Assembly (NCBI GenBank): GCA_965205075.1
Contig: OZ242036.1
Location: forward strand, 1,897,318-1,961,317
Reading direction: 5' to 3'
DNA length: 64,000 nt
Origin: Candidatus Poribacteria bacterium
GTDB taxonomy: Bacteria > Poribacteria > WGA-4E > PCPOR2b
Every line of letters begins with the position of its first letter. Positions within the stretch are counted from its first letter, which is position 1. This document shows positions 9,179-55,811 of the stretch, piece by piece. Both the position numbers and the translations under genes were made by a program. The notes beneath the pieces were generated by a model. The model was not told where the DNA came from and did not search any database. It worked only from the letters and a program-made list of their open reading frames with translations.

Positions 9179-11131
9179 TCACACCCAAAATCCGTAGGTT
9201 GACATCTTCGCCATAATGCCAAAGATTGTCCAGAGACTACCAACGGTAAACTCACCCAGAATAAGCCCCAGGAAGAACGGAGCAACGCGACGATGCAGCC
9301 CGATTCCACCATGTCGCAATAACAGCCATTTGATAAGCCAACTTACAAAAAGGCAACTCCATGTCACCCGCATTCCCCAACTCGTCGAGATAGCAAAACC
9401 CGCAGGGTGGAAGGGCCACCATACAAACCGCATGCGGAAAAGCATCAAGAAACTAGCGATGATAAAACCGCATGCCATAAAGCCACTCTCAACGATTAAT
9501 GTGTCTGTCGGCGTACTCAACCAACGGTCAAGCCGTCGATACGGTTCAAGACCAAATGCACTTAACGAGGGCCAGTAGGCACGCCTCTCCATCCCCAGCT
9601 GATAGCCACGATCAATCAGCGCCCAAAACCCGGAAAGTGAGCCGAGAAATGCCGCGAGCATCAGTGCAAGCATGAGATGCCGCAGATTCATGCGGGTCCG
9701 CTCTGCCATTTTGAACCCCTCTAGTTGATGCGGCATTGGGTGGCTGCGGTAGGCGCGATTGATGAACCAAAACATGGAGAACATCACCAGATTCCCGCGT
9801 CCCAGCTTTCGGGTGCCAATTGTTCGTGTGAGGATTTCGTCCGGACCGGAATAGTGCAAATCATGGACGGGCGTTCCTAACTCTGCTCGCATACGGGTTA
9901 TGGCGATGGAAATAGCATAATAGAGGAGGAAGAAGCCTATAGTGATCCCCACTGTTGCCCCACCCCGATAGCAAAAGAAGATAAAGAACACCATTACACC
10001 AATAAGCCCTAACACCGCTGTGTGATACTTCATCGGTTCAACTGAATCGTCGAGATCTTCCGCTCCACCAAATACTTTTCTGGCGATCATTATCAGGTGC
10101 CTTCTGCTCGCCCAAAGTGCGATGACAGCAAGTGCGATGTAGCCCCCCGATGCCTGTTCTCTCATGTAAGGAAAGTTCGGTAGACTTTGTAACCCCATTG
10201 CGGCGCCGGCAACGCGCATCAATCGCCAAAACCAGAAGAAAAACCAGCATGAGAACGATAGGTCAAGCGGAATGAAAAATCCGAGTCCAATGGCAAACGG
10301 GTAAAAGGAGAGCGGAATTCGACCCATAGCGTTCCACGGATCATCGGTGAAAAGGTGAAAACTCTGAATCCGTGTCCGAAGCTCTGGCACAACAGGGAAA
10401 ATGAAGTGTAGCCCGTTCAGCAGTGCTAGCGCGGCTGCGATGGCGAATCCGAGCCACATCACCCGATTCCGAAAGAACGTCTGCCGTTGTGTCTCTGTCA
10501 TCTGGAGTGGGAGTTGAATAATCGGGTAGCTGAGTTTTTCATGCTCAATCCACTGTTTGCGGATAATGACGTTGATGCAAAACATCCCGAAGACAAGCAT
10601 AAAAATAAACGTGGTCCACCAGAGGACGGGTGATGCCCAACCGATTAGCTGTTCAGGTGTATAGAGGTTCACCTCACCCTCGTAATACCCACGAGCAACT
10701 TTGCTATCGCTGACAGTTAGCCACTCCGGCAGGTAGGGCAGAAATAGCTCGCGCCATTCGTTTTCTGGTGTGGCAAAACGGAAGGCGTGCCCCAACATCG
10801 GCACAAGGATTTCGAGCATGTCGTGTCCGGTGATGCCCGATGCGATGGAGAGCATCAGGTAGATAATGATAAGTTCTGCCTGATTCAGCGCAGAACGGGG
10901 CGAAAACCACCTGAATAACTGGTTGACACCGATAACTACAAAAAGGCTGAAAATGACATTGAAGAAGAGGGAGATAGTCACCGGATGACCGGAGTACCGG
11001 ATGACCTCCATCTCAATGACCCAGTAGCAGTTAATTGGGATGAGTAGGCAGGCGATAAGGAGAGATTTGGCCGTAACGCCTTCAATTGGTTGCTGCTCTA
11101 TTTTAGAGAGGGATGGATCTGTTGTCGCCAT
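9179..11131 (-). CDS. Large polytopic integral membrane protein (more than 12 predicted TM segments), function unknown
   Basis: 650-aa ORF dominated by hydrophobic helices. It lies directly downstream of the OMP gene on the same strand. Confidence 0.6.
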   Translation of the reverse strand: MATTDPSLSKIEQQPIEGVTAKSLLIACLLIPINCYWVIEMEVIRYSGHPVTISLFFNVIFSLFVVIGVNQLFRWFSPRSALNQAELIIIYLMLSIASGITGHDMLEILVPMLGHAFRFATPENEWRELFLPYLPEWLTVSDSKVARGYYEGEVNLYTPEQLIGWASPVLWWTTFIFMLVFGMFCINVIIRKQWIEHEKLSYPIIQLPLQMTETQRQTFFRNRVMWLGFAIAAALALLNGLHFIFPVVPELRTRIQSFHLFTDDPWNAMGRIPLSFYPFAIGLGFFIPLDLSFSCWFFFWFWRLMRVAGAAMGLQSLPNFPYMREQASGGYIALAVIALWASRRHLIMIARKVFGGAEDLDDSVEPMKYHTAVLGLIGVMVFFIFFCYRGGATVGITIGFFLLYYAISIAITRMRAELGTPVHDLHYSGPDEILTRTIGTRKLGRGNLVMFSMFWFINRAYRSHPMPHQLEGFKMAERTRMNLRHLMLALMLAAFLGSLSGFWALIDRGYQLGMERRAYWPSLSAFGLEPYRRLDRWLSTPTDTLIVESGFMACGFIIASFLMLFRMRFVWWPFHPAGFAISTSWGMRVTWSCLFVSWLIKWLLLRHGGIGLHRRVAPFFLGLILGEFTVGSLWTIFGIMAKMSTYGFWV

Positions 11132-21665: not shown

Positions 21666-22706
21666 ATGTTGAAAAAAAGAGTGGTCTTATTGGGATTAAT
21701 TCTATTAGCGACTGTGTTGGTAACAATCGTACCGCATGCCAACGGACAATGGAACATTTTGCAACAGATGGACATGGAGGATGTTCGGGACTATAATGGG
21801 GTTGCTTTTATCAGCCCTGACGAAGGATGGGTCGTTGGTATTTCAGCTTTGGATATGGACAGTCCGGGATATATTGGGCACACCCGAGATGGCGGCAAAA
21901 CGTGGCAGAAAGTGGAAGAGCCCATCAATCAGATGCTCAACGACATTTTCTTCTTCGATAAAAAACATGGATGGGCAGTGGGCCAAGAGGGCATGATTGT
22001 TGGAACAACGAACGGCGGCAAACGCTGGGATGTCCAGACGAGCAAGGTTGGCAACTGGCTTAAAGGTGTCTATTTCGTTAGCCCCAAAGTCGGTTTTGCA
22101 GTTGGCATGAATGAGACGATTGTTCAAACCGGTAACGGCGGAAAACAGTGGAGTATACTTCGTGGTGGTGAGGTTGCCGCTGCTGTGGGCGACGAAGAAA
22201 CGGTTGTGTATAATGCAGTCCAATTTATTGATGAATCCACCGGCTGGGTGACAGGGGTTAGAATTAGTCCTGAAACTGGCGGACAAGATGGCTTAGTTCA
22301 GAAAACTACCGATGGTGGAAAAACATGGGTGGATCAACCCACAAATATTCCGGATATTCTTGAGGACATTTGCTTTGTGGATGCCAATAACGGTTGGGCG
22401 GTTGGAGAGAACGGTATCGTCCTACACACTACAAATGGTGGTAATACTTGGGATATCCAAACCAGTGGGACAGAGGAAAAGCTATTGAGCGTTAGCTTTG
22501 CTGATAGTGCTGTCGGCTGGGCAGCCGGTGGAGGGCTAGGTGTCAGTATTATCATTCATACCACTGACGGCGGAGCAACATGGGCAACGCAAACTGTTGA
22601 TGATCCGATCATCAGTAAGGTGCCTGCAAACGGTATTTTTGTGTTGGATGCAAACAACGTTTGGGTTACCGGTAATAATGGTTTCGTTGTGTCATCTTCA
22701 AAGTAG
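21666..22706 (+). CDS. Secreted BNR/Asp-box repeat beta-propeller protein (Ycf48/sortilin-like)
   Basis: Signal peptide. Six S/TxDGGxTW Asp-box repeats (TRDGGKTW, TTNGGKRW, TGNGGKQW, TTDGGKTW, TTNGGNTW, TTDGGATW). Confidence 0.75.
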   Translation: MLKKRVVLLGLILLATVLVTIVPHANGQWNILQQMDMEDVRDYNGVAFISPDEGWVVGISALDMDSPGYIGHTRDGGKTWQKVEEPINQMLNDIFFFDKKHGWAVGQEGMIVGTTNGGKRWDVQTSKVGNWLKGVYFVSPKVGFAVGMNETIVQTGNGGKQWSILRGGEVAAAVGDEETVVYNAVQFIDESTGWVTGVRISPETGGQDGLVQKTTDGGKTWVDQPTNIPDILEDICFVDANNGWAVGENGIVLHTTNGGNTWDIQTSGTEEKLLSVSFADSAVGWAAGGGLGVSIIIHTTDGGATWATQTVDDPIISKVPANGIFVLDANNVWVTGNNGFVVSSSK

Positions 22707-22768
22707 AGCCTATCTATTTGAACACAATCCTAAGTTAGGAGAATCTATTTTTTAAATTGAGGTGATAG

Positions 22769-23935
22769 ATGATTTTTGCAGATCGAATGGACCGTTTGGG
22801 AACGGAATCTGCTTTCGAGGTACTTGCCAAAGCCAAAGGATTAGAAGCTCAGGGAAAAGACATTGTTCATCTCGAAATTGGTCAACCCGATTTCATAACC
22901 CCTGCGAATATTAGTGAGGCGGCGTTCAAGGCGATGAAGGATGGTCATACCGGGTATGGGCCGTCCGCAGGTTTGCTGGAGTTTCGTGAAGTTATTGCTG
23001 AACACATCTCAGAAACACGGGGTGTAGAGATCCATCCTGATGAAGTTACTGTTACGCCCGGTGCCAAGCCTATCATCTTCTTCACCATCTTGGCACTCAT
23101 CAATGAGGGAGATGAAGTTATCTACCCTAACCCCGGATTTCCGATCTATGAGTCCGTGATTGACTTCATTGATGCGAAAGCTGTACCCTTACCGTTGCGT
23201 GAGGAGGTTGGTTTTCGCTTCCGGATTGAGGATCTTGAGGCTTCTATCTCGGATCGGACGAAGCTGTTGATTATCAACTCGCCCCAAAACCCGACGGGCG
23301 GCACGTTGGCGAAAAGTGACTTGGAAGCAATCGCGGAGCTAGCAGTTAAGCACAATTTCTATGTGCTGACAGATGAAGTCTACTCACGAATTCTTTATGA
23401 GGGTATCCATGATAGTCTCATCAGTCTACCGGGCATGAAGGAACGTACGATTCTCCTTGAAGGACACTCGAAAACATACGCCATGACCGGCTGGCGGTTG
23501 GGCTATGGAGTTGCTCCTACCGAGCTAGCGGATAAGATCACCCAGCTAACCATAAACTCCAATTCGTGCACTGCGACTTTCACACAATTTGCAGGGATTG
23601 AAGCACTGAAGGGACCACAAGATTTTGTCCACGATATGGTTACCGAGTTCAGAAAACGGCGTGACGCAATCGTTGACGGTCTCAATGCAATTGAGGGTAT
23701 AAGTTGTATCAAACCCCTTGGTGCATTCTACGTATTCCCAAATGTCTCACAACTTCCACTTTCCTGCCAAGATCTATCGGACTATCTGCTTGAAGACGCA
23801 GGTGTTGCGGTCCTGCCCGGCACCGCCTTTGGTAAATATGGCGATGGCTACTTGAGACTGTCGTATGCAAATTCACTGGAGAATATTCAGGAAGCCTTAG
23901 CCCGGATGGATTCGGCAATTTCAAGGATTCGGTAG
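22769..23935 (+). CDS. Class I/II pyridoxal-phosphate aminotransferase (aspartate-aminotransferase-like)
   Basis: Typical AAT-fold sequence (…IINSPQNPTGG…SKTYAMTGWRLGY…). Confidence 0.8.
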   Translation: MIFADRMDRLGTESAFEVLAKAKGLEAQGKDIVHLEIGQPDFITPANISEAAFKAMKDGHTGYGPSAGLLEFREVIAEHISETRGVEIHPDEVTVTPGAKPIIFFTILALINEGDEVIYPNPGFPIYESVIDFIDAKAVPLPLREEVGFRFRIEDLEASISDRTKLLIINSPQNPTGGTLAKSDLEAIAELAVKHNFYVLTDEVYSRILYEGIHDSLISLPGMKERTILLEGHSKTYAMTGWRLGYGVAPTELADKITQLTINSNSCTATFTQFAGIEALKGPQDFVHDMVTEFRKRRDAIVDGLNAIEGISCIKPLGAFYVFPNVSQLPLSCQDLSDYLLEDAGVAVLPGTAFGKYGDGYLRLSYANSLENIQEALARMDSAISRIR

Positions 23936-23963
23936 TTGCGTTTAATTTTAGCAGGTAGACTCG

Positions 23964-24878
23964 ATGCCCAACAAAGCGATCGCTCGTGTTCCAGCGAGCA
24001 CCACAAACTTAGGTCCGGGTTTTGATGTCCTTGGGCTTGCCCTACAACTCTATAGCACGATTTCGCTTGAAGAGATTGATAAGGGATCGGAGATTGAGGT
24101 CACCGGCGTCGATGTCGATAAACTCTCCAACGACGAGAGCAATATGGCTTACCGAGCCGCAAATCTGGTTTTCGACAAGTGTGGGTATAAGCCGAAAGGG
24201 CTGCGATTGGTCTTAACTAATGGCATACCGGCAATTCGGGGATTGGGTGGCAGCGGAACAGCAATACTCGGTGGACTGTTGACAGCAAATGCCTTATGTG
24301 ATGCCCCTTTTTCCCGTATGGAATTGCTTGATTTTGCCACTGAGTTTGAGGGGCACCCGGATAACGTTGCTGCCTCGCTCCTAGGCGGTTTGGTTGTATC
24401 TATGATGCAGGGCAGTCACGTACATTCAATCCAATTGGATTGCGATGCAGATCTGCGGGTTGTTGTAGCAATCCCTGATTTCTCGTTGTTAACCAAAGCA
24501 GCCCGCGGTGTTCTGCCCGAAACAGTCGATTTTGCTGATGCCATCCACAACGTGAGTTGTTCTTCAATGCTAGTGGCGGCAATTGCAACAGGTAAATTAG
24601 AGATGTTATCACTCGCCATGGCGGATCGGCTCCATCAACCGTACCGAACCTCCCTCATCCCCGGATTTGACGCTGTAGCTGAATCTGCGATGCGTGCAGG
24701 CGCATTGAGCGTGGCGTTGAGCGGCGCAGGTCCCAGCATTGCAGCCTACTGCACGACATCAACTGATGAAGTCGGCTCTCAGATGAGCCAAGCCTTTAGA
24801 CGAAATCAGATTTCTTGCGACATCAAGGTCCTACCCATCGATTCCACAGGTGCTACGGTGCAGCTGAGCGGAAGCTAA
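23964..24878 (+). CDS. thrB: Homoserine kinase (GHMP kinase)
   Basis: TTNLGPGFDVLGLAL...NGIPAIRGLGGSGTAILGGLL GHMP motifs. About 304 aa. Confidence 0.8.
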   Translation: MPNKAIARVPASTTNLGPGFDVLGLALQLYSTISLEEIDKGSEIEVTGVDVDKLSNDESNMAYRAANLVFDKCGYKPKGLRLVLTNGIPAIRGLGGSGTAILGGLLTANALCDAPFSRMELLDFATEFEGHPDNVAASLLGGLVVSMMQGSHVHSIQLDCDADLRVVVAIPDFSLLTKAARGVLPETVDFADAIHNVSCSSMLVAAIATGKLEMLSLAMADRLHQPYRTSLIPGFDAVAESAMRAGALSVALSGAGPSIAAYCTTSTDEVGSQMSQAFRRNQISCDIKVLPIDSTGATVQLSGS

Positions 24879-24999
24879 GCACCTGAAATCTGCTTTCTAT
24901 ATCCCTAACGACTCCGCCGATTTTCCCCTTCCACTCTCTATTTTTCTGTTTCGTTCACTATTTACTATGCGTTGTAAAATGTAAGGGAGCGAACAAACG

Positions 25000-26295
25000 A
25001 TGAACACAGACACCGCAAAAATTTATGCGAGGGGCGGTCTAGGCGGAAACGGCTGCATTAGTTTTCGTCGTGAAAAGTTTGTGCCGCGGGGTGGTCCCAA
25101 TGGCGGTGACGGTGGGCACGGCGGCAGTGTCATTTTGGAAGTTGCCGAGGGGATAAGCACACTCATCGATTTCCAATATAACCCCCATCAGGTTGCGGAG
25201 AACGGTCAACACGGTATGGGGAAATTGCGGCACGGGGCAGACGCCGGAGATCGCGTCGTCAAAGTCCCGCCGGGTACGATTGTACGGGAACCAGAGACAG
25301 GTGAGATTATTGTCGACCTGAAAACGGTGGGGCAGCGTGCAGTCATCGCACGCGGCGGGATTGGCGGGAAAGGAAATGTGCGGTTCAAGAGCAGCACATT
25401 CCAAACCCCGCGCGTCGCTGAGAAGGGAGAGCCGGGGGAGGAACGTACTGTCACGCTAGAAGTCAAGTTGATTGCAGACGTTGGCTTGGTCGGTTATCCA
25501 AACGGAGGCAAATCGACACTACTCGCACGCACCTCTGCCGCAAAACCGAAGATTGCGGATTATCCCTTTACAACACTGACCCCCAATCTAGGTGTCGTCC
25601 GAGTTGACCCTGAACACAACTTTGTGCTCGCAGATATTCCCGGTCTCATTGAGGGTGCACACGAAGGTGCAGGATTGGGGCATGACTTTTTACGGCATAT
25701 TGAACGCACGAAGATGCTTCTTCACATCATCGACACCGCCTCTGTTGATGGACGAGATCCAATCACCGATTACGAACAGATCAACACGGAACTTGAACGG
25801 TATAACCCTCGTTTAATTCGCTTGCCACAGTTAATTGTCCTTAATAAAATTGACCTTCCTGATGCACAGACTAATTTGCAGCGAGTCAAAGACTACTTTG
25901 GGAAACGTCGGGTTTTTCCAATTTCTGCGGTCGCCGGTGAGGGGGTAGACCGGCTCATCAGAGCGACCTACCAACTTCTGCAACGGATCAATGAACGGAT
26001 TCGTGAACGCCAAGAAACGGTGGAATCTCAACCAACCTTTCACATTCCCAAACCTGATGAACGATTTGAACTGATCGCACGGGCAAATCGTTTCATCGTG
26101 CGTGGCGCAGAACCACGTCGTGCTGTTCTCATGACCGATATGGAAAATGATCAGGCACTGGTGCTCCTCCATCGAAAACTAAAAAAAATGGGCGTCCTGA
26201 ACGCGCTCATCAAAGCAGGTATTACGGAAGGCGATACCGTCCAAGTTGATACCTTCGAGTTTACATATAGCACTGATGAAATCAACACAAATTGA
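25000..26295 (+). CDS. obg: GTPase Obg/CgtA
   Basis: Gly-rich Obg fold (GGLGGNGCISFRREKFVPRGGPNGGDGGHGG), a G-domain (GYPNGGKSTLL, DIPGLIEGA, LNKID) and a C-terminal OCT-like domain. Confidence 0.9.
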   Translation: MNTDTAKIYARGGLGGNGCISFRREKFVPRGGPNGGDGGHGGSVILEVAEGISTLIDFQYNPHQVAENGQHGMGKLRHGADAGDRVVKVPPGTIVREPETGEIIVDLKTVGQRAVIARGGIGGKGNVRFKSSTFQTPRVAEKGEPGEERTVTLEVKLIADVGLVGYPNGGKSTLLARTSAAKPKIADYPFTTLTPNLGVVRVDPEHNFVLADIPGLIEGAHEGAGLGHDFLRHIERTKMLLHIIDTASVDGRDPITDYEQINTELERYNPRLIRLPQLIVLNKIDLPDAQTNLQRVKDYFGKRRVFPISAVAGEGVDRLIRATYQLLQRINERIRERQETVESQPTFHIPKPDERFELIARANRFIVRGAEPRRAVLMTDMENDQALVLLHRKLKKMGVLNALIKAGITEGDTVQVDTFEFTYSTDEINTN

Positions 26296-27424
26296 CCCCC
26301 GTCAACTGTTAGCGCGTTCTAGACGCGTCGTCGTGAAGGTTGGCAGCACAACCGTCTCGAAGAATTTCGATCTTAATCCCGAGCGTTTGGATGCACTGGT
26401 GCAGGATCTCGCATCGGTAAAGCAAAAGGGTAAAGAAATTATTCTTGTTACTTCTGGTGCGATCGCTGCGGGTACAGGCAGATTGGGACTCACACAACGT
26501 CCGCAAACACTTCCCGGATTACAGGCGGCAGCGTCAGTAGGACAAACCCGTTTGATGCACGCTTACGAACAGCGGTTTTCGGAATATACTCAGATTACGG
26601 GGACGATGCTTCTGACGCAGGACGATTTCAATTTCCGCGAACGCTATACACATATGAGCAATACGTTACGCGCGCTGCTGCGGCTTGGGGTTCTGCCGAT
26701 CATTAACGAAAATGATACCGTTGCAGTAGAAGAAATCAAGGTAGGCGACAATGACACGCTAGCGGCGTATGTGACGAATCTCGCCGAGGCGGACCTGCTG
26801 ATTATCTTATCAGACCAAGACGGGTTTTATACCGCAGATCCTCGCAAAGATTCGGAGGCGAAATTGATTAGTCTCGTCTATGATGTTACTGATGAACTCA
26901 AACGGTCAGCGGGAAGGGCGGGCAGCCAGAGCGGCACCGGCGGCATGGCGACAAAACTACACGCTGCCGAAATTGTTACAGGATCAGGTGAAATGATGGT
27001 GCTCGCAAATGGTGCCGAGTCGCAAGTGGTGAGCCGCATACTAGCGGGTGAAAAGATCGGGACGTTATTCCTTCCACAGGAGCGGATGTCAGGACGAAAA
27101 CGGTGGATTGCCTATTCACGTCCACCAAAAGGCCGTCTGGTTGTAGACAGTGGCGCGTGTCGGGCGTTGGTCCATCAAGGTAGGAGTCTCCTACCGTCCG
27201 GGATTCAGCAAGTTGAGGGCAGCTTTAATCATGGGGATACCGTCTCCTGTCGAGACGAAGCGGGGATCGAACTTGCTAGAGGACTTGTTAATTATAATAC
27301 GCACGACCTGAAACGGATTATGGGCAAACAGACCAGCGAAATTGAAAAGCTACTCGGCTACTACTCTTATAACGAAGTGATTCACCGGGATAATTTGGTT
27401 GTCATGCACAGGATAGAAGCGTGA
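26276..27424 (+). CDS. proB: Glutamate 5-kinase with a PUA domain
   Basis: RRVVVKVGSTTVS...ILVTSGAIAAG...C-terminal PUA-like region. The start is uncertain. It overlaps the obg 3' end by about 20 nt. Confidence 0.8.
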   Translation: MKSTQIDPRQLLARSRRVVVKVGSTTVSKNFDLNPERLDALVQDLASVKQKGKEIILVTSGAIAAGTGRLGLTQRPQTLPGLQAAASVGQTRLMHAYEQRFSEYTQITGTMLLTQDDFNFRERYTHMSNTLRALLRLGVLPIINENDTVAVEEIKVGDNDTLAAYVTNLAEADLLIILSDQDGFYTADPRKDSEAKLISLVYDVTDELKRSAGRAGSQSGTGGMATKLHAAEIVTGSGEMMVLANGAESQVVSRILAGEKIGTLFLPQERMSGRKRWIAYSRPPKGRLVVDSGACRALVHQGRSLLPSGIQQVEGSFNHGDTVSCRDEAGIELARGLVNYNTHDLKRIMGKQTSEIEKLLGYYSYNEVIHRDNLVVMHRIEA

Positions 27425-45298: not shown

Positions 45299-45540
45299 CT
45301 TAATCTCCTCTTTGTGAATCATAGTGTTGGCAACAGCATAAAACAATCTGTGAGCCAAGTCAACCCTTTTTCTGTACCCCTGTGCTAACCCGCGCCGGAA
45401 GCCCCATCCTGAGACAACGCAAACCGAACTTTCCCATTGACACCGATCTGATAATTTGTATAATCATGCCCACACGGTCCAAGGGATTGACTTCAGAGAG
45501 GTTCGTCAGGAGGCACAATCGAGCACAAGGAGAGAAATGG

Positions 45541-46797
45541 ATGCGTTATCCAACCGAACGACAGATAGAAGAAAGAACAGATCACAGCTTTGATGCCAAT
45601 GTTTATACCCGCCTAGGTGTCAAACCATTCATCAACGCCAACCTCCCTTTTACGTTTTTGAGTGCAACGGTGGTGTGGCCAGAAGTGCGCCGGGCAATTG
45701 ATGAAGCAGCCCACTATATGGTTGATGTTGTCGAACTACAACGGGGGGTAGGCAGGCGTCTTGCGGAGATTTCGGGGGCAGAGTCCGGCATGGTCTCCTC
45801 CGGTGCCGCTGGATCCATGGCACTAGCAACAGCAGCGTGCATCGCGGGCACCGATCCAGAGAAGATTTGGCAGTTACCTGACACCGCTGGTCTCAAGGAT
45901 CAGGTTATCATGTGGGGTGGGCGTAGTATCTTCGACAGCGCGTTGCGACTGGTAGGAGGAAAACCGGTGGTGGTTAGGTCGCTGGACGGCTTGCGTCACT
46001 CGATTAACGATGAGACCGCCATGCTTTGCACTGGATATTCGGCAGATCCAGATCCGGTTGATCCACCACCCCTAGCAGAGATGGTGGAGATTTGTAAGTC
46101 CGCGGGTATACCCATATTTGTGGATGCAGCGGGCGGCATACCACCCATTGACAATATCCGTCGGTATGCGCGCATGGGCGTAGACCTGTATGGCTTTAGT
46201 GGAGGCAAGGGACTACGAGGACCGCAAGCTAGTGGCCTGTTGCTTGGGCGGCGTGATCTGATTGAAGCGGCTCTTGCTAACGCTACGCCTGTGGAGGGGG
46301 CGGTGTGTAGGGCAATGAAGGTCGGAAAGGAAGAGATTATCGGTTGTATGGCAGCTCTTGAAAAGTGGCTGACCATCGACCTTGCTGCGTTGTATCGTGA
46401 ACAGACGGAAACGCTTCAGAGAATCGCAGGATTCGTAAAATCTGTACCCGGTGTTGATACTAAAATTGAGCTCCGCAACGGTAGTAATCGCTTCATGCAA
46501 TTAGTTCTGAATTGGGATGAAGAGATTTTGGGACTTTCTGCAGATGAGTGTGGACGCGAGTTGCGCGAAGGGGATCCCCCTATATCGGTGCTGTGTAATT
46601 ATAATCCTTACGTGACGAGGGTTCGCGAATTCTTTCCGCCGGCTCCTCCTGATGGCAAATCGGTCAAGCGTCAGAGTAGCCCGCTGACTGTGTTCTCTCT
46701 CAGTCTTCAACCCGGCGAAGAACAGATTGTTGGAACTCGGCTGCGCGATATATTGATGGCGGCACTTAATAGGACTTCATTGCCTTCAAATAAGTGA
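45541..46797 (+). CDS. SelA/DgaE-like fold-type-I PLP-dependent enzyme
   Basis: FSGGKGLRGPQASGLL matches the SelA/DgaE PLP-lysine motif (SG-D/G-K-L-L-GGPQAG). RBS AAGGAGA before the ATG at 45541. Confidence 0.55.
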   Translation: MRYPTERQIEERTDHSFDANVYTRLGVKPFINANLPFTFLSATVVWPEVRRAIDEAAHYMVDVVELQRGVGRRLAEISGAESGMVSSGAAGSMALATAACIAGTDPEKIWQLPDTAGLKDQVIMWGGRSIFDSALRLVGGKPVVVRSLDGLRHSINDETAMLCTGYSADPDPVDPPPLAEMVEICKSAGIPIFVDAAGGIPPIDNIRRYARMGVDLYGFSGGKGLRGPQASGLLLGRRDLIEAALANATPVEGAVCRAMKVGKEEIIGCMAALEKWLTIDLAALYREQTETLQRIAGFVKSVPGVDTKIELRNGSNRFMQLVLNWDEEILGLSADECGRELREGDPPISVLCNYNPYVTRVREFFPPAPPDGKSVKRQSSPLTVFSLSLQPGEEQIVGTRLRDILMAALNRTSLPSNK

Positions 46798-46841: not shown

Positions 46842-49595
46842 CTAGCGCCGCCGAGTCGTGAGGTTCAAGGGCAAAAATAACAGAACAGCACAGAAGGCAA
46901 GCATCCATTGCCACTCTTCGACGAGTGGAGCAAAACCAAATATTTGTTGCGTTGTTGGCAGGTAGACTATAGATAGATGCAGCGCAATACAAGCCAAGAT
47001 GGTAAAACATAAGGGAAGATTTGCCCTTATTCTTTGGAAAACAGTTTCCCAAAAGAGGCGATGGCACTGGAAACTTGAAATGAGCAAGCCCAAAATCAAT
47101 GTTGTACATGCTGCGGTTTGTGCAGCGGCATGGGGGTTCTGCTGCATCGGGTCTGAATTTACGGCTGTGAGAATAAAGCTAAAAATAGTCATTGACGCAA
47201 TGACAAGGCTGCGCAGCAACGTATCGTAGAAATCAGCTCGTGATAGGAAGGGTGGAATCTTTTGAGGTCTGCTGTATCTAATGTCACTACGCACACGATC
47301 ATACCCCAGACTCACCAGTGGTATCAAACTTACGAGTAGATGAACCCAGAACAACTGCAGCAGGGTTAAGGGCATGGGTAACTCACGTAGCACAGGAAAA
47401 AAGAAACCGATATACGGTAGCGCGTATCCAATGATAAGCGTGATAACCTGTGCAAGGCTGCAGGAGAGCAGCCAACGCATTGAACTTCTTAAGTTGATAT
47501 AAGACTCCCGCACCTGACGCATGAGATTTGTGATGACACCAAAGCCGTCGTCAAGCACCACACACCCTGCGCGGTGTTGAACAATATGAGATGAGCGAGC
47601 AGCAGAAGCAAAACCAACATCTGCCATCCGCATCGCTCGCAAATCGAGCGGTGATTTACCCCAAAATCCAACAGAATAACCGAGGCGTTTTAGATGTTGT
47701 ACCAAATTCTGTTTCTGTTCGGCGGTAGGACGACAATATACCAGCAAGCGATTTACAATCGATTCATACTGCTCATCACTGAATTCAGCTAAGTCTTCTT
47801 GCGTAACAACCCCGTATTTATCCTGAACAATAGCCAATTCTTTGGCAATATCCAGAGCAGCGTTCCTATCTCTATCCGTTATTGTGACAATTTTAAGTCC
47901 TGCATCAAGACTATATTGGATGATCTCCTTTGAATCAGGGTACTCTAGCTCCATGAAAGTAATGAAGCCTAAAAAGGTCATGTTAGGCTGCGTCTCTTCC
48001 ACTGGAGGCGGGGTGTTTAGGTTTCGATAAGCGACAGCGAAGGCTTGTGTTTTGCTATTTGATAGGTATTCAATTGCTTGATGTATCAACTGCTTCTGAT
48101 CGAAATTCATATAATTAGCATTTCCATCAAGTTGAATACGATGACAAGTCTGTAGTATTGCCTCCGCATCTCCAAACATTAGCTTTATGAACCTTCCATC
48201 TTGGAGTGCAAAAACCACCGTTTTATAGGGGCGTTCTGATGTCTGAATCTGTTCATCAATTTTAGTGAAAGCCTCATTGTAACGGTCCAAGTCAAATCCA
48301 ATTCTTTCGGCAATTTGGTTTAACGCGGTGCTCACGCTTACTTCCGCTACGGTCGAAGTTTCCTCCATACCACTCTTGATCGCATCATCGGCACAGCGAT
48401 TTGCAAGGAGAATCAACAGCGGAAATTCCTGTGGCACCTCTGAATCGGGTAACGCCGTTGAAATTGTCTCTTCGCCAATCTCCTCTGCCAGATGTTGATC
48501 GCGGGACTTCAACCAAGCTTCCCACGTCTCCTGATCGATGAGACTGTCACCGACAAAAACGTGCGAAACGGTCATCTCCTCCGTCATAAAATTGCCGACT
48601 TCATCAACACAGACTGCCGTAAGTTTGCTCAGTCGTTCCAGATTGACAAGATTGCGAATTGCGATCCCTCTCTGTAGAAGTGTATAGGCGTGCTGTGTAA
48701 GGATGGCTCGACTCGTTGAGGCAAGCCCTTCTGGAATTGCAGCGACGACAAAACCGAATCCAAGAAATAGGAGTTCACTCCAATGGGAACTTTTTTCTTG
48801 AAGCAGAAACGCTAGGCCAATCGCTACCACGCCCAATATGCCCCCGACAATGCGGAAATAGTCGTAAAAAATGCCCATCTGGACTTCTGCTTCGGCATCT
48901 AGGTCAACCATCTCGGGCGTACGTTTCTCGGATTTGCTTATTTCCAACTGCTCGCCGATCCCAACAACAATCGCCTGGCCTTCTCCTTCAAGAATATAGG
49001 TCCCAGCAAAGAGCATGTTACTTTGCTTGCCGGGCGGTAAGTTAGGAGTAGAGATATCCTCATCGGTTTTTTGCGTGTAGGTTGCCGTTCCAAACACCGG
49101 CGCTTCATCGACCACCAATGCGTCAGCCTCAACAATGCGGGCATCAGCTGGAACATAGTCACCTTCCCTCAGGAGCAATAGATCTCCGGGGACAATCACC
49201 GTAGGTGGAAGTTTGATAACACGCTCATCGCGAATAACGGACACACTAACTTCTAAATGGGTTTTAATAGACTGTAACTGAGAGCGTGCCCGTCCAGCCT
49301 GAATAAATCGCCAGAGAACATGAAAACAGAGAATGGACGAAAATACTAAGATTTCGTGAATCGCACGTTGGAGGTAGAAAAGGAGGCAGATAACAACGAA
49401 CAGGAGTATGACAGTTAAATTGGCAAATTGTTTCAGTAGGAGGGCAAAAAGTGAACGTTCATGGGGTTGCAGGACTTCGTTGCTTCCATATTTGCTGCGT
49501 TGGGAAGTAGCTTCCTCACTGCTTAATCCACGTTCGAGATCTGTTTTGAATTCATGCAGAAGATGTGGAATTTTTTGGGAGTACCAATTTGACAT
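46842..49595 (-). CDS. P-type ATPase homologue with degenerate catalytic motifs (probable pseudo-ATPase)
   Basis: Cation_ATPase_N-like start (GLSSEEATSQRSKYGSNEV), an actuator domain, about 10 TM segments and a HAD-like domain. TGES is FGTA, DKTGT is DEVGN, TGD is TDR, and GDGVND is GKSPLD. Confidence 0.65.
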   Translation of the reverse strand: MSNWYSQKIPHLLHEFKTDLERGLSSEEATSQRSKYGSNEVLQPHERSLFALLLKQFANLTVILLFVVICLLFYLQRAIHEILVFSSILCFHVLWRFIQAGRARSQLQSIKTHLEVSVSVIRDERVIKLPPTVIVPGDLLLLREGDYVPADARIVEADALVVDEAPVFGTATYTQKTDEDISTPNLPPGKQSNMLFAGTYILEGEGQAIVVGIGEQLEISKSEKRTPEMVDLDAEAEVQMGIFYDYFRIVGGILGVVAIGLAFLLQEKSSHWSELLFLGFGFVVAAIPEGLASTSRAILTQHAYTLLQRGIAIRNLVNLERLSKLTAVCVDEVGNFMTEEMTVSHVFVGDSLIDQETWEAWLKSRDQHLAEEIGEETISTALPDSEVPQEFPLLILLANRCADDAIKSGMEETSTVAEVSVSTALNQIAERIGFDLDRYNEAFTKIDEQIQTSERPYKTVVFALQDGRFIKLMFGDAEAILQTCHRIQLDGNANYMNFDQKQLIHQAIEYLSNSKTQAFAVAYRNLNTPPPVEETQPNMTFLGFITFMELEYPDSKEIIQYSLDAGLKIVTITDRDRNAALDIAKELAIVQDKYGVVTQEDLAEFSDEQYESIVNRLLVYCRPTAEQKQNLVQHLKRLGYSVGFWGKSPLDLRAMRMADVGFASAARSSHIVQHRAGCVVLDDGFGVITNLMRQVRESYINLRSSMRWLLSCSLAQVITLIIGYALPYIGFFFPVLRELPMPLTLLQLFWVHLLVSLIPLVSLGYDRVRSDIRYSRPQKIPPFLSRADFYDTLLRSLVIASMTIFSFILTAVNSDPMQQNPHAAAQTAACTTLILGLLISSFQCHRLFWETVFQRIRANLPLCFTILACIALHLSIVYLPTTQQIFGFAPLVEEWQWMLAFCAVLLFLPLNLTTRRR

Positions 49596-49746
49596 AGTTC
49601 ACAATTCTTGTCTAAAAACTGAAGAAAGTATGAGAGATAAGACAGTTGACTAAGGATTCAACTGAGTCAAATAGGACCTGTCCGCTAAAATCTGCCCTGT
49701 TCTAAAGAGCGGAGTTATATTTTACCACGTAATCATATGTCTGAAA

Positions 49747-49786
49747 ACAAAAAAAGCCTCGCCTAATGACGAGGCTTTAATTTTGA
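49747..49786 (-). terminator. Rho-independent terminator downstream of rpmA (bidirectional-looking)
   Basis: Hairpin AAGCCTCG-CCTAATGA-CGAGGCTT flanked by an A-run upstream and a T-run downstream on the plus strand. Confidence 0.6.
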
Positions 49787-49807
49787 CAGAGCTGATGGAA
49801 TAAGTAG

Positions 49808-50074
49808 TTAAAAATCGGGACGGTCTGGATAAACACTAACTTTCCTACGGAACTTATCCTTGCGCTCAAACCAGACATAGCCATCAATTTTCGAGAACAG
49901 CGTGTAATCGTTTCCAACCCCCACGTTGCTTCCGGGGTGGATGTGTGTGCCGCGTTGTCGAACCAGAATACTCCCTGCGGTCACAGCGCTGCCAGCAAAC
50001 TGCTTGACACCAAGCCGTTTACCGATACTATCTCGTCCATTGCTCGTACTTCCGCCACCTTTTTTATGAGCCAT
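49808..50074 (-). CDS. rpmA: 50S ribosomal protein L27
   Basis: [16 protein letters not shown]...canonical L27 N-terminus. Confidence 0.9.
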
Positions 50075-50417
50075 TTTCGTCCCCTCCTTCAGATGGGTTA
50101 TTTCCGTCTCGGATTTCAGTTATGCGTAGTCGGGTAAATTGCTGACGGTGCCCAAGTTTTCGCTTATACCCTTTACGTCTTTTCGACTTGAAAACGACAA
50201 TTTTTTTATCCTTAGCTTGTTGTACGACTTCACCGACAACAGCGGCATCTTCGAGGTATGGCGTGCCAACCTGCACATTGCCGTTACTGTCGCCTATGGC
50301 CAATATTTCCGATAGGGTCACTTCTTCACCGACAGGGGTATCTAACTTTTCAACATCAATTAGCGTATCCACCTGAACACGATGCTGTTTCCCACCCGAG
50401 GCAAATACAGCATACAT
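50064..50417 (-). CDS. rplU: 50S ribosomal protein L21
   Basis: [15 protein letters not shown]...[21 protein letters not shown] matches the L21 family. Its C-terminal tail overlaps the rpmA start by 11 nt. Confidence 0.85.
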
Positions 50418-52663: not shown

Positions 52664-54238
52664 TTAACTTTGTTCGCGCGGAGTCATTGTGACCACTGGT
52701 ATAATCAATTCTCCCGTTGAGATGCCTCCATGTTGGAAGCCACCTCGAAACTGGCGGGTATATTCGTTGAATTGATTGGGGTAAACAAAATAATAATCTT
52801 CTTTTGCAATAATGTAGTTTTTACTTGAGTTATCGGCAGGTAGTCTATACCGTTTCGGATCATCAATATAAATGGCTTGATCGGCATCGCAGCCTAAATT
52901 TGTACCAACCTTGAAGCGCAGACTTGTAGAAGTTTCACGGTTTCCATACGCTCTTGATGGTCGATTACAGAGCACCGAACCGTGATCTGATGTTAGAACG
53001 ATAACAGCATCCTGCTTCGATATAATTTTTAGGATCTCGAACAGCGCTGAGTGAGCGAACCACGACTTTGTCAGAGATTGAAAGGCGGATTCATCCGGTG
53101 CGATCTGTTGGAGAATATCTGATTGTGAACGCTGATGCGTCAACATATCAATAAAATTTACGACCAAAGCGGATAGGCTGATTCGATCAAATGAAGAAAC
53201 TTGGCGTATAAACTCATTGCCACCTTTAATATCGAAGATCTTAAAGTACTTTAATCCCGGCTTAAGTTTGATTCCTGCACGTTGGAGTTGGAGTTGGAGG
53301 AGTTGCCTTTCATAACGGTTCGTGCTGGTTTCGTCCGCAGCGTCCTCCTGCCAATACTGTGGGAATCTTTCCGCTAGCTCTTGCGGAAACAGACCACTAA
53401 AAATTGCGTTACGTGAGTAGAGCGTTGCGCTCGGTAAAATTGAAAAATAGTAGTCCCTATCAATATAGAAATAGGGTTGGAGTATGGATTCAATTGCTAT
53501 CCAATGATCTAGGCGTAGACAGTCAACGACAATCAGATACAGCTGGCGCTCCTGACGCAGATGGGGGATAACAAATTTATCAACAACATCAACAGACAGA
53601 ATTGGAGAATCTTCGCCCTTTAGCCACCGCAGGTAGTTTTCCTGTACATAATCAGAAAACAGGGCGTTACATTCTTTTTTTTGCTCCAAATGTGTTTCTT
53701 CAAGCCCTGTTTGTGCCAAGTGATTTAGCTCAAGATCCCATTCGAGCAATTTCAGATAGATTTCTATCCATTCCCGCCAGTCTGGATTTGCATCTTTACT
53801 AGCACGGATTTGGTTAAAATCGTGGGTATAGTTGCGTGGCACCTGTGATTCAATGATATTCGTCTGATCCAGTACCCGCTTTAGGGTCGAAGCGATTTGA
53901 GAAACGCCAATGGGCTTCACCAAAAAGTCGCTAACCCGTTTTCCTAGTGCCTCATCAATTAACTGATCTTCGCTGCCTTGCGTGACCATAATCACGGGTA
54001 AGATGGGGTTAATTTCACGGATTCGGTCGAGTGTTGCCATACCATCCTGCCCTGGCATCACCTGATCAAGCAAAACAGCGTCGTAATAGGATTCCTTGAG
54101 TAGTGAAATCGCATCAGTTCCATTGGAAACTGGTGTGACATCGTAAGATTTCTCACGGAGAAGAAGAATATGGGGTTTCAGCGCATCAATCTCATCATCA
54201 ACCCAAAGGATTTTACGCGTTATGTTTTGCGCTAACAC
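52664..54238 (-). CDS. Response regulator with REC plus PglZ (alkaline-phosphatase-like) domains, PorX-like
   Basis: REC N-terminus (ILWVDDEID...VLLDQVMPGQDG...FLVKP) and C-terminal LTSDHGS PglZ/AlkP-core motif. GTG start, AAAGGGG RBS. Overlaps the kinase gene end. Confidence 0.65.
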   Translation of the reverse strand: MLAQNITRKILWVDDEIDALKPHILLLREKSYDVTPVSNGTDAISLLKESYYDAVLLDQVMPGQDGMATLDRIREINPILPVIMVTQGSEDQLIDEALGKRVSDFLVKPIGVSQIASTLKRVLDQTNIIESQVPRNYTHDFNQIRASKDANPDWREWIEIYLKLLEWDLELNHLAQTGLEETHLEQKKECNALFSDYVQENYLRWLKGEDSPILSVDVVDKFVIPHLRQERQLYLIVVDCLRLDHWIAIESILQPYFYIDRDYYFSILPSATLYSRNAIFSGLFPQELAERFPQYWQEDAADETSTNRYERQLLQLQLQRAGIKLKPGLKYFKIFDIKGGNEFIRQVSSFDRISLSALVVNFIDMLTHQRSQSDILQQIAPDESAFQSLTKSWFAHSALFEILKIISKQDAVIVLTSDHGSVLCNRPSRAYGNRETSTSLRFKVGTNLGCDADQAIYIDDPKRYRLPADNSSKNYIIAKEDYYFVYPNQFNEYTRQFRGGFQHGGISTGELIIPVVTMTPREQS

Positions 54239-55811
54239 TTTGTTCCCCTTTCTTTCTCTCCTTAAACTTCAGCCAGAATATTGAAATTTTCGTCAGCAGT
54301 TTGGCTGTTTTCTGATCCCCAGCCGTTTCTACGGGCAATACGATCTCAAAGGTTGTTCCTTGCGAACTGGTATGAATGAGTCGAATCTGTCCATGATGAT
54401 ATGCCTCAATGATTCGTTTAACCAACGTCAAACCAAGTCCCCATCCATGTTTTTTCGTTGTCATCCCCGGCCGAAAGATTTTATTCCTGTTTTGCCGAGG
54501 AATTCCTTGACCATTATCTTTATATAGGACGACAATCTGATGCTCCTTCGGATGGAGCTGCGGATCGATTTCGATGATACCATTTTCTTTATCTATCGCA
54601 TCGAGTGAATTCCGAATTAGATTTTCAAAAACCCATTGTAGTAGATCCGCATTCGCCACAATTTCGGGAAGTTCGCGGTCAACGACGCGCAGTTCAACCT
54701 GCTTGCTGAGATTCGGCAAACGCTTTTGGAAATAAGCAACAGCATCACCGATTACTGAATTGATATCGATCCGGGTTTGTTGTGGGAACGATCCAATCTT
54801 GCCGAAACGTTCTGTAATACGCTGGAGCCGAGTGAGATCACTTTGCATATTTGCATAAATCTCGGCGGTAGTAGTATCGCCTCGCTGCTTGTCCAACTCC
54901 ATTGATAGCTCAACCCAGCCCATCAAGGAAGAGATCGGTGTACCAAGTTGATGTGCGGTCTCCTTGGCAAGGCCTCCCCAAATCGACGCTTGCTCAATGG
55001 TCTTAATCCGTCGATAACTCAAAAAGCCGACAATCAAAACCGTTGAGAACACTACCACTAACACGACAGGCATGACGAAGATAGCGTAGTCAGGGATGAC
55101 TTCATAGTACAGATCGCCCTGAAGGGTGCCGGGGTTAGTTAGCAATGGGACGTATCGCTCCATGGCTTCGGAATTGCGCACGAACATCTCTGCCCGCTTG
55201 TATTGTTCGGGTGTAGCGGTCTCTGGTGTGAGCAGTCGATCCCATATCTTCCACTGGCGTGGGTTGTTTTTTAAGTCCGTGATGACGAAGGGGAGCTGAT
55301 CTATCGCATCTGCGCCCGCCACACCATGATAAAAATAGCCATCAATTAGGAAATAACGGAGCGGTATCGGTTTGTTCCGTTTCATCCGATTGAGAATGTC
55401 AATGAGCTTTGACTTCTCAGCGTCAGAGAGCGGGAGGTCATTATAAATCTTGTTTTCAATAGTCTTGTCGCTGAGATTTTTAGCGATCTTGACCTGACCA
55501 TCCTCGGCATCGGTAATGATGAATGAGAGCCGGCTTTCAGCTAACAGTTCCTTTTTGATAATCTGGCTTAACCGGCTTTGGAGTTGTACATCGTTAATAG
55601 TGGGAAGTAAAGCTTCAAGCTTTGCCAGTGGCTGCACCTGCTTTTCAAAAACGTCATTACGTTGAAGCAGCAATCGGGTGTAATACACAAAGGCTAGCGA
55701 AAGAATTACAAGCCCGACAATAAAGTACGTCAACAAGAAATTAGAGGCAGCGTAGCCGGTGGATACAGTCCTCTGACGTTTGAAAAACATCTGTGTGCCC
55801 CAATCAAGCAC
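54213..55811 (-). CDS. Membrane-bound sensor histidine kinase (PorY-like partner)
   Basis: Two TM segments. H-box ETAHQLGTPISSL, N-box NLIRNSLDAI, and G-boxes DNGQGIP / GWGLGL. Confidence 0.8.
   Translation of the reverse strand: MLDWGTQMFFKRQRTVSTGYAASNFLLTYFIVGLVILSLAFVYYTRLLLQRNDVFEKQVQPLAKLEALLPTINDVQLQSRLSQIIKKELLAESRLSFIITDAEDGQVKIAKNLSDKTIENKIYNDLPLSDAEKSKLIDILNRMKRNKPIPLRYFLIDGYFYHGVAGADAIDQLPFVITDLKNNPRQWKIWDRLLTPETATPEQYKRAEMFVRNSEAMERYVPLLTNPGTLQGDLYYEVIPDYAIFVMPVVLVVVFSTVLIVGFLSYRRIKTIEQASIWGGLAKETAHQLGTPISSLMGWVELSMELDKQRGDTTTAEIYANMQSDLTRLQRITERFGKIGSFPQQTRIDINSVIGDAVAYFQKRLPNLSKQVELRVVDRELPEIVANADLLQWVFENLIRNSLDAIDKENGIIEIDPQLHPKEHQIVVLYKDNGQGIPRQNRNKIFRPGMTTKKHGWGLGLTLVKRIIEAYHHGQIRLIHTSSQGTTFEIVLPVETAGDQKTAKLLTKISIFWLKFKERKKGEQSVSAKHNA

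Follow-up and report, generated by a model that had tools for sequence, protein, structure and literature searches.

The gene and the encoded protein

The window analysed here, a 64,000-nucleotide stretch of contig OZ242036.1 from a Candidatus Poribacteria bacterium, carries on its minus strand a gene for a P-type ATPase homologue of 917 amino acids. We conclude with high confidence that this protein is the catalytically dead descendant of a P2A-type (Ca-ATPase-like) pump, which keeps the whole pump architecture without any of the Post-Albers groups, catalysis having been lost once and the gene being held under purifying selection. The open reading frame (ORF; 46842..49595, minus strand) begins with an ATG, and this start codon is supported by the N-terminal sequence MSNWY.., which is conserved among the orthologues. 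Motif positions were read from a residue-by-residue alignment to the Listeria Ca-ATPase LMCA1, and the window coordinates were verified. The features of the gene are as follows.

46842..49595, minus strand: coding sequence of the catalytically dead P2-type ATPase homologue, stop codon TAG at 46842-46844
49383..49586, minus strand: Cation_ATPase_N domain (Pfam), residues 4-71
48891..49265, minus strand: actuator (A) domain, residues 111-235, the most invariant cytoplasmic part of the family
49083..49094, minus strand: FGTA in place of TGES, residues 168-171 (LMCA1 alignment)
48723..48734, minus strand: PEGL of M4, proline kink
48591..48605, minus strand: DEVGN in place of DKTGT, residues 331-335 (LMCA1 alignment)
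47961..48560, minus strand: homologue of the nucleotide-binding (N) domain, residues 346-545, ATP-contact residues replaced
48168-48176, minus strand: FGD in place of KGA in the N domain, the Lys of KGAPE being replaced by Phe
47871..47879, minus strand: TDR in place of TGD, residues 573-575 (LMCA1 alignment)
47643..47660, minus strand: GKSPLD in place of GDGVND, residues 646-651 (LMCA1 alignment)
47445..47480, minus strand: M5 segment MRWLLSCSLAQV, with R707 and W708 in 77/77 orthologues
47316..47348, minus strand: M6 segment WVHLLVSLIPL, Ca ligands replaced
46845..47300, minus strand: M7-M10, residues 766-917, unusually conserved compared with canonical pumps

An earlier note on this stretch, made from the sequence alone, had described a full-length type-II P-type ATPase homologue of 917 amino acids with about ten transmembrane (TM) segments, and both points hold. 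The Pfam models E1-E2_ATPase (PF00122, 5.5e-25), Cation_ATPase_C (PF00689, 2e-21) and Cation_ATPase_N (PF00690, 1.4e-16) match above their cutoffs, and the closest solved relatives are LMCA1 (5.7e-59) and human SPCA1. The domain check that the note had proposed gave a divided outcome: PF00122 and PF00689 passed, whereas the HAD 'Hydrolase' model PF00702, which covers the catalytic-site domain, scored 14.5 bits, below its cutoff of 26.4. The N-domain model PF13246 falls just under its cutoff (21.0 against 21.7 bits). The nearest NCBIfam model is that of the PMR1-type Ca-ATPase (TIGR01522), with 258 bits against a cutoff of 798, and TIGR01494, 'HAD-IC family P-type ATPase', passes with 100.4 bits against 62.3.

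An AlphaFold2 model built from a 25-sequence family alignment (pLDDT 75.9, pTM 0.66) contains ten TM helices together with the three cytoplasmic domains A, N and P. The top Foldseek matches to this model are exclusively P2-type pumps (E ~1e-47). The model fits E1 states (TM 0.65-0.70) better than E2 states, a preference to which we give no weight. By homology and fold, the protein belongs to the P-type ATPase superfamily, with the N-terminal, A, P, N and M domains all present in the ten-TM topology of the P2 type.

Loss of the phosphorylation, Mg and nucleotide sites

P-type ATPases are defined by aspartyl-phosphate chemistry. The four substitutions first noticed in this protein (FGTA, DEVGN, TDR and GKSPLD) all lie at the positions homologous to the canonical motifs in the LMCA1 alignment. 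Residue counts, here and below, were taken across 77 orthologues.

In the A domain, the Glu of TGES that serves dephosphorylation is lost, and the homologous position is without Glu in the orthologues; the motif position reads (L/V)-F-G, with Phe in 76/77 and Gly in 72/77. In the phosphorylation loop, the Lys of DKTGT is replaced by Glu332 in all 77 sequences and both Thr residues are lost, as the earlier note had stated for the catalytic Lys and Thr, while Gly334 is kept in 76. The phospho-Asp itself, which the note had reported as retained, is indeed present in this protein, but not family-wide: position 331 is Asn in 38 orthologues, Asp in 37, Ser in one and His in one. The retained Asp carries no weight, because half of the family has Asn under equally strong selection. 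At the TGD site, Thr/Ser is kept in 72/77 and the Gly is changed to Asp/Glu in 75/77. The first Asp of GDGVND, the Mg ligand equivalent to D703, has become Gln (51), Lys (12), Arg (8) or Glu (5). The motif's final Asp is invariant (77/77), and the RAM that comes after it is nearly so. Covariation links positions 331 and 647: Lys/Arg647 occurs with Asp331 in 19 of 20 cases, and Asn331 goes with Gln/Glu.

The losses extend beyond those first listed, to the ATP contacts of the N domain, the DPPR motif and the cation ligands of M5, M6 and M8. The Lys position of KGAPE is occupied by Phe in 70/77, and KGA reads FG across the family. In addition, PFxSERK has other residues in place of its Lys and of the Phe that stacks on adenine, the Arg of LRVLA is replaced, and DPPR is absent. 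The nucleotide-binding set of the N domain (the KGAPE Lys, the stacking Phe and the equivalents of Lys492 and Arg560) is therefore missing as a whole.

None of the sequence marks of a functional P-type ATPase was found, neither a DKTGT with a conserved Asp, nor the Glu of TGES, nor the TGD(N)/GDGxND Mg2+ site. Relocated copies of the motifs were also sought and rejected: pattern searches and alignment revealed no DKTG, TGE[SN], TGD or GDG.ND in any dead member, and about 75 canonical proteins in the same scans carried all four motifs. The four motifs of HAD superfamily hydrolases are likewise incomplete. Motif I is not conserved, motif II keeps its Ser/Thr in 72/77, motif III (the K684 equivalent) is Lys/Arg in 77/77, and motif IV retains one of its two Asp residues.

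These remnants bear on the reading of the protein as an energy-coupled enzyme or transporter with unconventional chemistry, which would use Glu332 or Asp331 as nucleophile or bind a nucleotide in a remodelled N domain. The invariant Glu332, the conserved residues of HAD motifs II and III, the invariant last Asp of motif IV and the TIGR01494 match above cutoff speak for it. However, half of the family has Asn, Ser or His in place of the nucleophile under the same strength of selection, Gln, Lys or Arg takes the position of the Mg-ligand Asp, none of the known ATP contacts of the N domain is kept and PF00702 stays below threshold. Moreover, Glu or Asn is not known as phosphoryl acceptor in any HAD-superfamily enzyme. 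We regard such chemistry as very improbable.

The membrane ion site

The ligand set of P2A Ca2+-ATPases (E309, N768/E771, N796/T799/D800 and E908) is not present, and the M4 carboxylate alone persists. This carboxylate (Glu/Asp289 or Asp290) is found in 62/77 orthologues, the remainder having Asn or another polar residue, and the adjoining M4 Pro is kept in 74/77. In M5, the N768 equivalent is Thr/Ser and the E771 equivalent is Gln (45) or Leu (32). In M6, the N796 equivalent is Gln (57) or His (20), and only hydrophobic residues (Leu, Met or Val) occur at the D800 equivalent. The E908 equivalent in M8 is Gln (66) or Leu (11).

The window protein itself has His and Cys residues in M2, M6 and M8. 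A membrane metal site formed by them was considered and rejected, as H92, H752, C90 and C869 vary within the family, in which conservation is limited to C712, C830, H670 and H873.

The remodelled site could still form a passive or gated conduit, in which protons, monovalent cations or other small solutes would cross along the old M4-M5-M6-M8 path and the headpiece would act as gate or ligand sensor. In line with this reading, M5-M6 is the most conserved block of the dead clade (mean pairwise identity 0.52), the ratio of nonsynonymous to synonymous substitution rates (dN/dS) is 0.06-0.13 in M5-M10, and the M4 proline kink and its carboxylate are widely kept. Thr, Gln and His line the old site, and the headpiece is still under selection, as a gate would be. 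On the other hand, the carboxylate cluster of the cation site is gone, and the replacements at the E771 equivalent (Leu in 32/77) and the D800 equivalent are hydrophobic, so that the path appears narrowed and dehydrated. Furthermore, there is no sign of a continuous pore, and the largest gain in constraint lies in M7-M10, off the pathway. We therefore consider a conduit unlikely, although distinctly less so than unconventional chemistry, and as the foremost competitor of the role proposed below.

Orthologues and selection

A search of 5.8 billion proteins returned about 105 clusters that run from 100% down to 30% identity without a break. Past these clusters, the score falls from 431 to 303 bits, where canonical, PF00702-bearing pumps begin. 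Wherever a cluster member has a name, it is Candidatus Poribacteria. When each GTDB species was represented by a single genome, a scan yielded 80 loci at 32-89% identity, whose named hosts are again all Poribacteria. The intact long ORF that the earlier note had pointed out is found here and in all 76 full-length loci, which come from different species and where it encodes 907-959 amino acids; the other loci are cut by a contig end, and none of the 76 copies is disrupted. Conservation family-wide, across the 77 orthologues, extends to the degenerate motifs. One 6.66-Mb chromosome encodes an identical protein, and many independent assemblies hold near-identical copies, which excludes sequencing error.

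Selection was measured by the Nei-Gojobori method on pairs with unsaturated dS. Whole-gene dN/dS is about 0.09-0.18, with pairwise extremes of 0.07-0.29, and each of seven regions, the N and P domains included, gives values of 0.04-0.28, all far from 1. The N domain, whose ATP contacts are replaced, is under purifying selection as well (0.11-0.20). Over the same 25 genome pairs, the dead gene (0.124) is as constrained as its frequent neighbour encoding a Ycf48-like propeller (0.124), and somewhat less than those encoding homoserine kinase (thrB, 0.072) and aspartate aminotransferase (AspAT, 0.046). Particularly, the median dN/dS is 0.109 for pairs in which both members have Asp331 (58 pairs) and 0.130 for pairs in which both have Asn331 (94 pairs). 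Since position 331 is split about evenly between Asn and Asp and selection is equally strong on both, aspartyl phosphorylation cannot be the conserved function.

Four signature motifs lost together would naively be expected of a broken gene, and we accordingly weighed whether this is a pseudogene in decay or an artefact that arose in sequencing or assembly. This explanation was rejected: independent assemblies agree, 76/76 loci are intact, dN/dS is about 0.1 and the replacement residues are conserved, which leaves it a negligible probability. No frameshifts or premature stops, no dN/dS near 1 and no patchy retention were found. The protein instead has the properties of a pseudoenzyme, namely absent catalytic residues, purifying selection and conservation across species, in agreement with the earlier proposal of a non-pumping pseudoenzyme rather than a decaying gene.

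Origin of the family and its divergent members

A profile search of 1.84 billion representatives recovered four core representatives at 1140-1440 bits and a second tier of very divergent proteins that are equally dead, comprising P0123 to P0126 (600-690 bits) and P0153 (431 bits). Canonical pumps with all motifs intact start at about 473 bits in the same search. The second tier has motifs of its own, for example CVEHTGG, CVEQESS and FTEARGY. A metagenome scan seeded with these proteins found three further dead members among 80 loci, the rest being canonical; a dedicated homology search identified P0123 as a singleton lineage, and P0153 carries the NCBI label Poribacteria. Because additional dead members are so few and P0123 stands alone, the family consists essentially of Poribacteria and a few rare relatives.

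A neighbour-joining (NJ) tree of 49 sequences unites all dead proteins in a single clade (100 of 100 bootstraps), whose long stem arises from within the canonical P2A-like pumps. As the dead sequences are monophyletic and nested within canonical P2 pumps, catalysis was lost once and long ago, in the ancestor of a clade that, beyond Candidatus Poribacteria, takes in essentially only a few relatives of which sampling is sparse.

Gene order agrees with the tree. The ancestral order, found in 66-67 of the 80 loci, is the Ycf48-like BNR propeller, AspAT, thrB and then the dead ATPase, all on the same strand. Among the divergent members, P0123 lies behind the Ycf48-like gene, AspAT and thrB with an 8-bp gap, P0125 lies behind thrB, and P0153 directly follows the Ycf48-like gene. 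P0126 lies behind thrC, a PGM-like protein and a 30-amino-acid remnant of thrB.

At locus L082, a 73-amino-acid ORF (7673-7894) directly upstream of the dead ATPase is a remnant of the N-terminus of thrB; the match covers 30 amino acids (7688-7777) and is 87% identical to a Poribacteria thrB. It adjoins thrC and the PGM-like protein (PF10143/PF01676). This arrangement may reflect a displacement of homoserine kinase, for which the PGM-like protein would be a candidate kinase. On the contig of P0123 (locus L081, GCA_024278235.1), the segment 11974-15699 holds a Porin_5 gene followed by a gene for an 817-amino-acid protein with faint matches to multihaem cytochromes (MtrC/MtrF-like). These genes hint that the P0123 lineage is free-living and capable of metal respiration or extracellular electron transfer, rather than a sponge symbiont.

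Where constraint now lies and a proposed role

Mean pairwise identity was compared by region between the dead clade and canonical pumps, which are similar overall (0.41 and 0.43, respectively).

P domain, first part (residues 321-345): dead 0.44, canonical 0.70
P domain, second part (residues 546-695): dead 0.43, canonical 0.58
M3-M4: dead 0.38, canonical 0.47
A domain: dead 0.49, canonical 0.46
M7-M10: dead 0.42, canonical 0.30

In the dead clade, the P domain and M3-M4 are less conserved than in canonical pumps, whereas the A domain is slightly more and M7-M10 much more conserved. The A domain contains 17 invariant columns (alignment A1). M8 reads A(R/Q)TAACTTLI almost invariably, and the M8-M9 loop has the invariant residues Q843, R846, W849, R855 and N859. 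The gain in M7-M10, the largest of all, is located outside the canonical ion pathway. In canonical pumps, M7-M10 form a variable 'support' bundle, which is also the docking place of beta, FXYD and CDC50-type subunits.

Based on these patterns, we propose an ATP-independent role for the protein, which would stay fixed in one conformation and serve as a scaffold or adaptor in the membrane. Its former ligand pockets would be filled or neutralised by its own side chains. Near the dead phosphorylation site, Lys/Arg647 would pair with Asp331 beside the invariant Glu332, and Gln/Glu would accompany Asn331. A Lys, Arg or Gln side chain may thus take the place of Mg2+ between two former ligands, because the covariation of positions 331 and 647 is as expected for such a replacement. 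Similarly, Phe would stand in for the ATP-binding Lys and for the Thr of TGES, and Gln would replace the Glu residues of the Ca site, resembling the protonated, ion-free state. With its pockets filled in this way, the fold would be stable without ligands. The surfaces of M7-M10 and of the A domain, which have gained or kept constraint, would bind one or more partner proteins, and the lone M4 carboxylate might remain able to bind a proton or cation, or to sense it.

Two features read from sequence comparison, the neutralised ion site and the move of constraint towards M7-M10 and the A domain, make us lean towards a scaffold or adaptor over a cation channel. Several points weigh against this picture. 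The scaffold role derives from conservation patterns, and the partner-binding surfaces are putative. The M4 carboxylate, the M4 proline kink and the polar residues of M5, M6 and M8 are equally compatible with residual transport or conductance. The structural model is of moderate confidence (the pLDDT of 75.9 given above) and poor around the dead phosphorylation loop. The neighbouring genes are housekeeping genes, and the linkage to them is broken in the clade of the window and in locus L090, and partly for P0153. As for the single loss, long-branch attraction could inflate the monophyly of fast-evolving sequences in an NJ tree. For the protein as a dead descendant of a pump and for its ATP-independent scaffold or adaptor role taken together, our confidence is evenly balanced, which still makes this role the most likely of those considered.

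A special case within this joint estimate is a regulatory paralogue without catalysis, whose partner would be an active P-type ATPase or some other transporter encoded elsewhere. Regulation of active relatives is common among pseudoenzymes, and conservation of the fold and of the surfaces on M7-M10 and the A domain speaks for such pairing. Against it, no canonical P-type ATPase is present in the window or in any flank examined, and we judge this special case improbable.

Genomic context

The surroundings of the dead gene in the window contain the following features.

21666-22706, plus strand: Ycf48-like BNR propeller with signal peptide, ancestral neighbour
22769-23935, plus strand: aspartate aminotransferase, ancestral neighbour
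23964-24878, plus strand: thrB (homoserine kinase), ancestral neighbour
49719..49747, minus strand: sigma-70-like promoter match TTTTCA-17-TAAAAT with an upstream TG, a consensus match only, 124 nt upstream of the ATG
49753..49778, minus strand: intrinsic-terminator-like hairpin after rpmA, an 11-bp stem followed by TTTTTGTTTTC, parting the gene from the rplU-rpmA unit

In the clade to which the window belongs (about 11 loci; L001-L010 and L080), the dead ATPase follows RNase G-rplU-rpmA instead of thrB. The ancestral trio of the window (21666..24878) sits 22 kb from the dead ATPase and is followed by obg-proB. Comparison of the two junctions, 23964-27424 (thrB then obg-proB) and 46842-50417 (rplU-rpmA then the dead ATPase), points to one inversion of about 25 kb with breakpoints between thrB and the dead gene and between rpmA and obg, because rplU-rpmA-obg is the usual bacterial order and a single event of this kind accounts for both junctions. 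The linkage to thrB is thus ancestral but dispensable, and for this reason we do not draw a functional conclusion from it, such as a role in the threonine pathway.

The description of the locus as terminator-flanked is supported on the upstream side, where a strong hairpin with a T-run follows rpmA (49778-49753), but not downstream, where the 44-nt convergent spacer contains no significant hairpin (z = 0.78). With the hairpin and the promoter match upstream of it, the dead ATPase in the window looks like its own transcription unit, as judged from these sequence signals.

The Ycf48/HCF136-like propeller is the most persistent neighbour, in a non-photosynthetic phylum, and directly adjoins the dead ATPase in the P0153 lineage (L083-L086). 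A membrane protein with DUF6785 and DUF6784 converges downstream on the dead ATPase in 55 of the 80 loci. It has 650 amino acids (9179-11131, minus strand, in the window; 8721-10673 in L021). Copies from distant clades share 72% identity, and the one in the window lies about 36 kb off. Convergent with the dead ATPase in the window is a gene for a 471-amino-acid protein (45382-46797, plus strand) with weak partial matches to Aminotran_5/SelA (E ~1e-6), a divergent PLP-fold protein that is conserved in the close clade. Upstream of RNase G, at 52664-55811 on the minus strand, an overlapping gene pair encodes a fusion of a response regulator with PglZ and a histidine kinase with HATPase_c; PglZ, which is alkaline-phosphatase-like, is unusual as the output domain of a response regulator.

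Comparison with known systems

Poribacteria are prominent uncultured sponge symbionts. In the databases, the members of the dead family (P0001-P0105 and P0153) are named 'Ca2+-transporting ATPase' (JGI), or 'cation-transporting P-type ATPase' and 'cation transporting ATPase C-terminal domain-containing protein' (NCBI). The family should not be filed as a Ca2+ pump, because, by function, it failed every P-type ATPase and HAD hydrolase test applied to it, and since automated annotation systematically calls its members pumps, metabolic reconstructions of Poribacteria over-count calcium pumps.

The best full-length matches in sequence and fold are the P2A Ca2+/Mn2+-ATPases LMCA1 (PDB 9euq/6zhf), SPCA1 (8iww) and the PMR1-type pumps (TIGR01522). 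They share with the dead protein the domain order, the ten TM helices, the M4 proline kink and the Arg-aromatic pair of M5, as well as the core motifs PGD, GD.VPAD.R and NM.F.GT of the A domain. In contrast, identity to these pumps is only about 20-25%, the TIGR01522 score (258 bits) stays far below the cutoff of 798, every residue of the catalytic, nucleotide, Mg and Ca sites is replaced, and M7-M10 is much more and the P domain much less conserved. With HAD phosphatases and phosphotransferases, the dead protein shares the Rossmannoid fold of the P domain, the Thr/Ser of motif II, the Lys/Arg of motif III and the second Asp of motif IV; unlike in these enzymes, the nucleophile of motif I is unconserved, the first Asp of motif IV is lost and PF00702 is sub-threshold.

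By analogy rather than homology, the family also recalls transporter-derived non-transporters (the pseudoenzyme or 'transceptor' concept), which keep a transport scaffold after losing the chemistry of energy coupling. As a monophyletic, phylum-wide and strongly selected dead branch, it shows that the P-type scaffold is useful beyond pumping. Moreover, it offers a natural 'ligand-free' version of the fold, with which one can ask which parts serve stability, partner binding or residual conductance.

Our literature searches (dead, pseudo or degenerate P-type ATPases, the FUPA families and P-type ATPases of Poribacteria) found no stand-alone dead P-type ATPase, and a 2023 review of the superfamily describes all characterised P-type ATPases as strictly coupled pumps and does not mention dead members. 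The dead family is therefore a new, non-catalytic variant of P-type ATPase with respect to the literature searched. The nearest precedent, and the sole published case found, is the P4-ATPase-like module of the guanylate cyclases of alveolates and stramenopiles (P4GC), in which whole lineages have changed the Asp of DKTGT and the Glu of the A-domain DGET without losing the module (PMC13466520). The altered lineages include Cryptosporidium, P4GC-beta, gregarines and Tetrahymena, and a supporting, non-pumping role was proposed for the module (PMC13466520), as we propose here. However, P4GC is eukaryotic and of the P4 (flippase) type, the fused cyclase supplies its output, and its degeneration is partial and lineage-specific, some members needing the Asp. 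The dead protein, in contrast, is bacterial, of the P2 type, stand-alone and dead in every member.

It is conceivable, though on balance we doubt it, that the P-type fold has here been turned, throughout a bacterial phylum, into an ATP-independent device with an activity of its own. It might serve as a membrane receptor, a facilitator or a gated channel, perhaps together with its ancestral neighbour, the exported Ycf48-like propeller. If true, the superfamily would have in this family its first non-catalytic branch that is both prokaryotic and stand-alone, much as the ABC transporters have CFTR.

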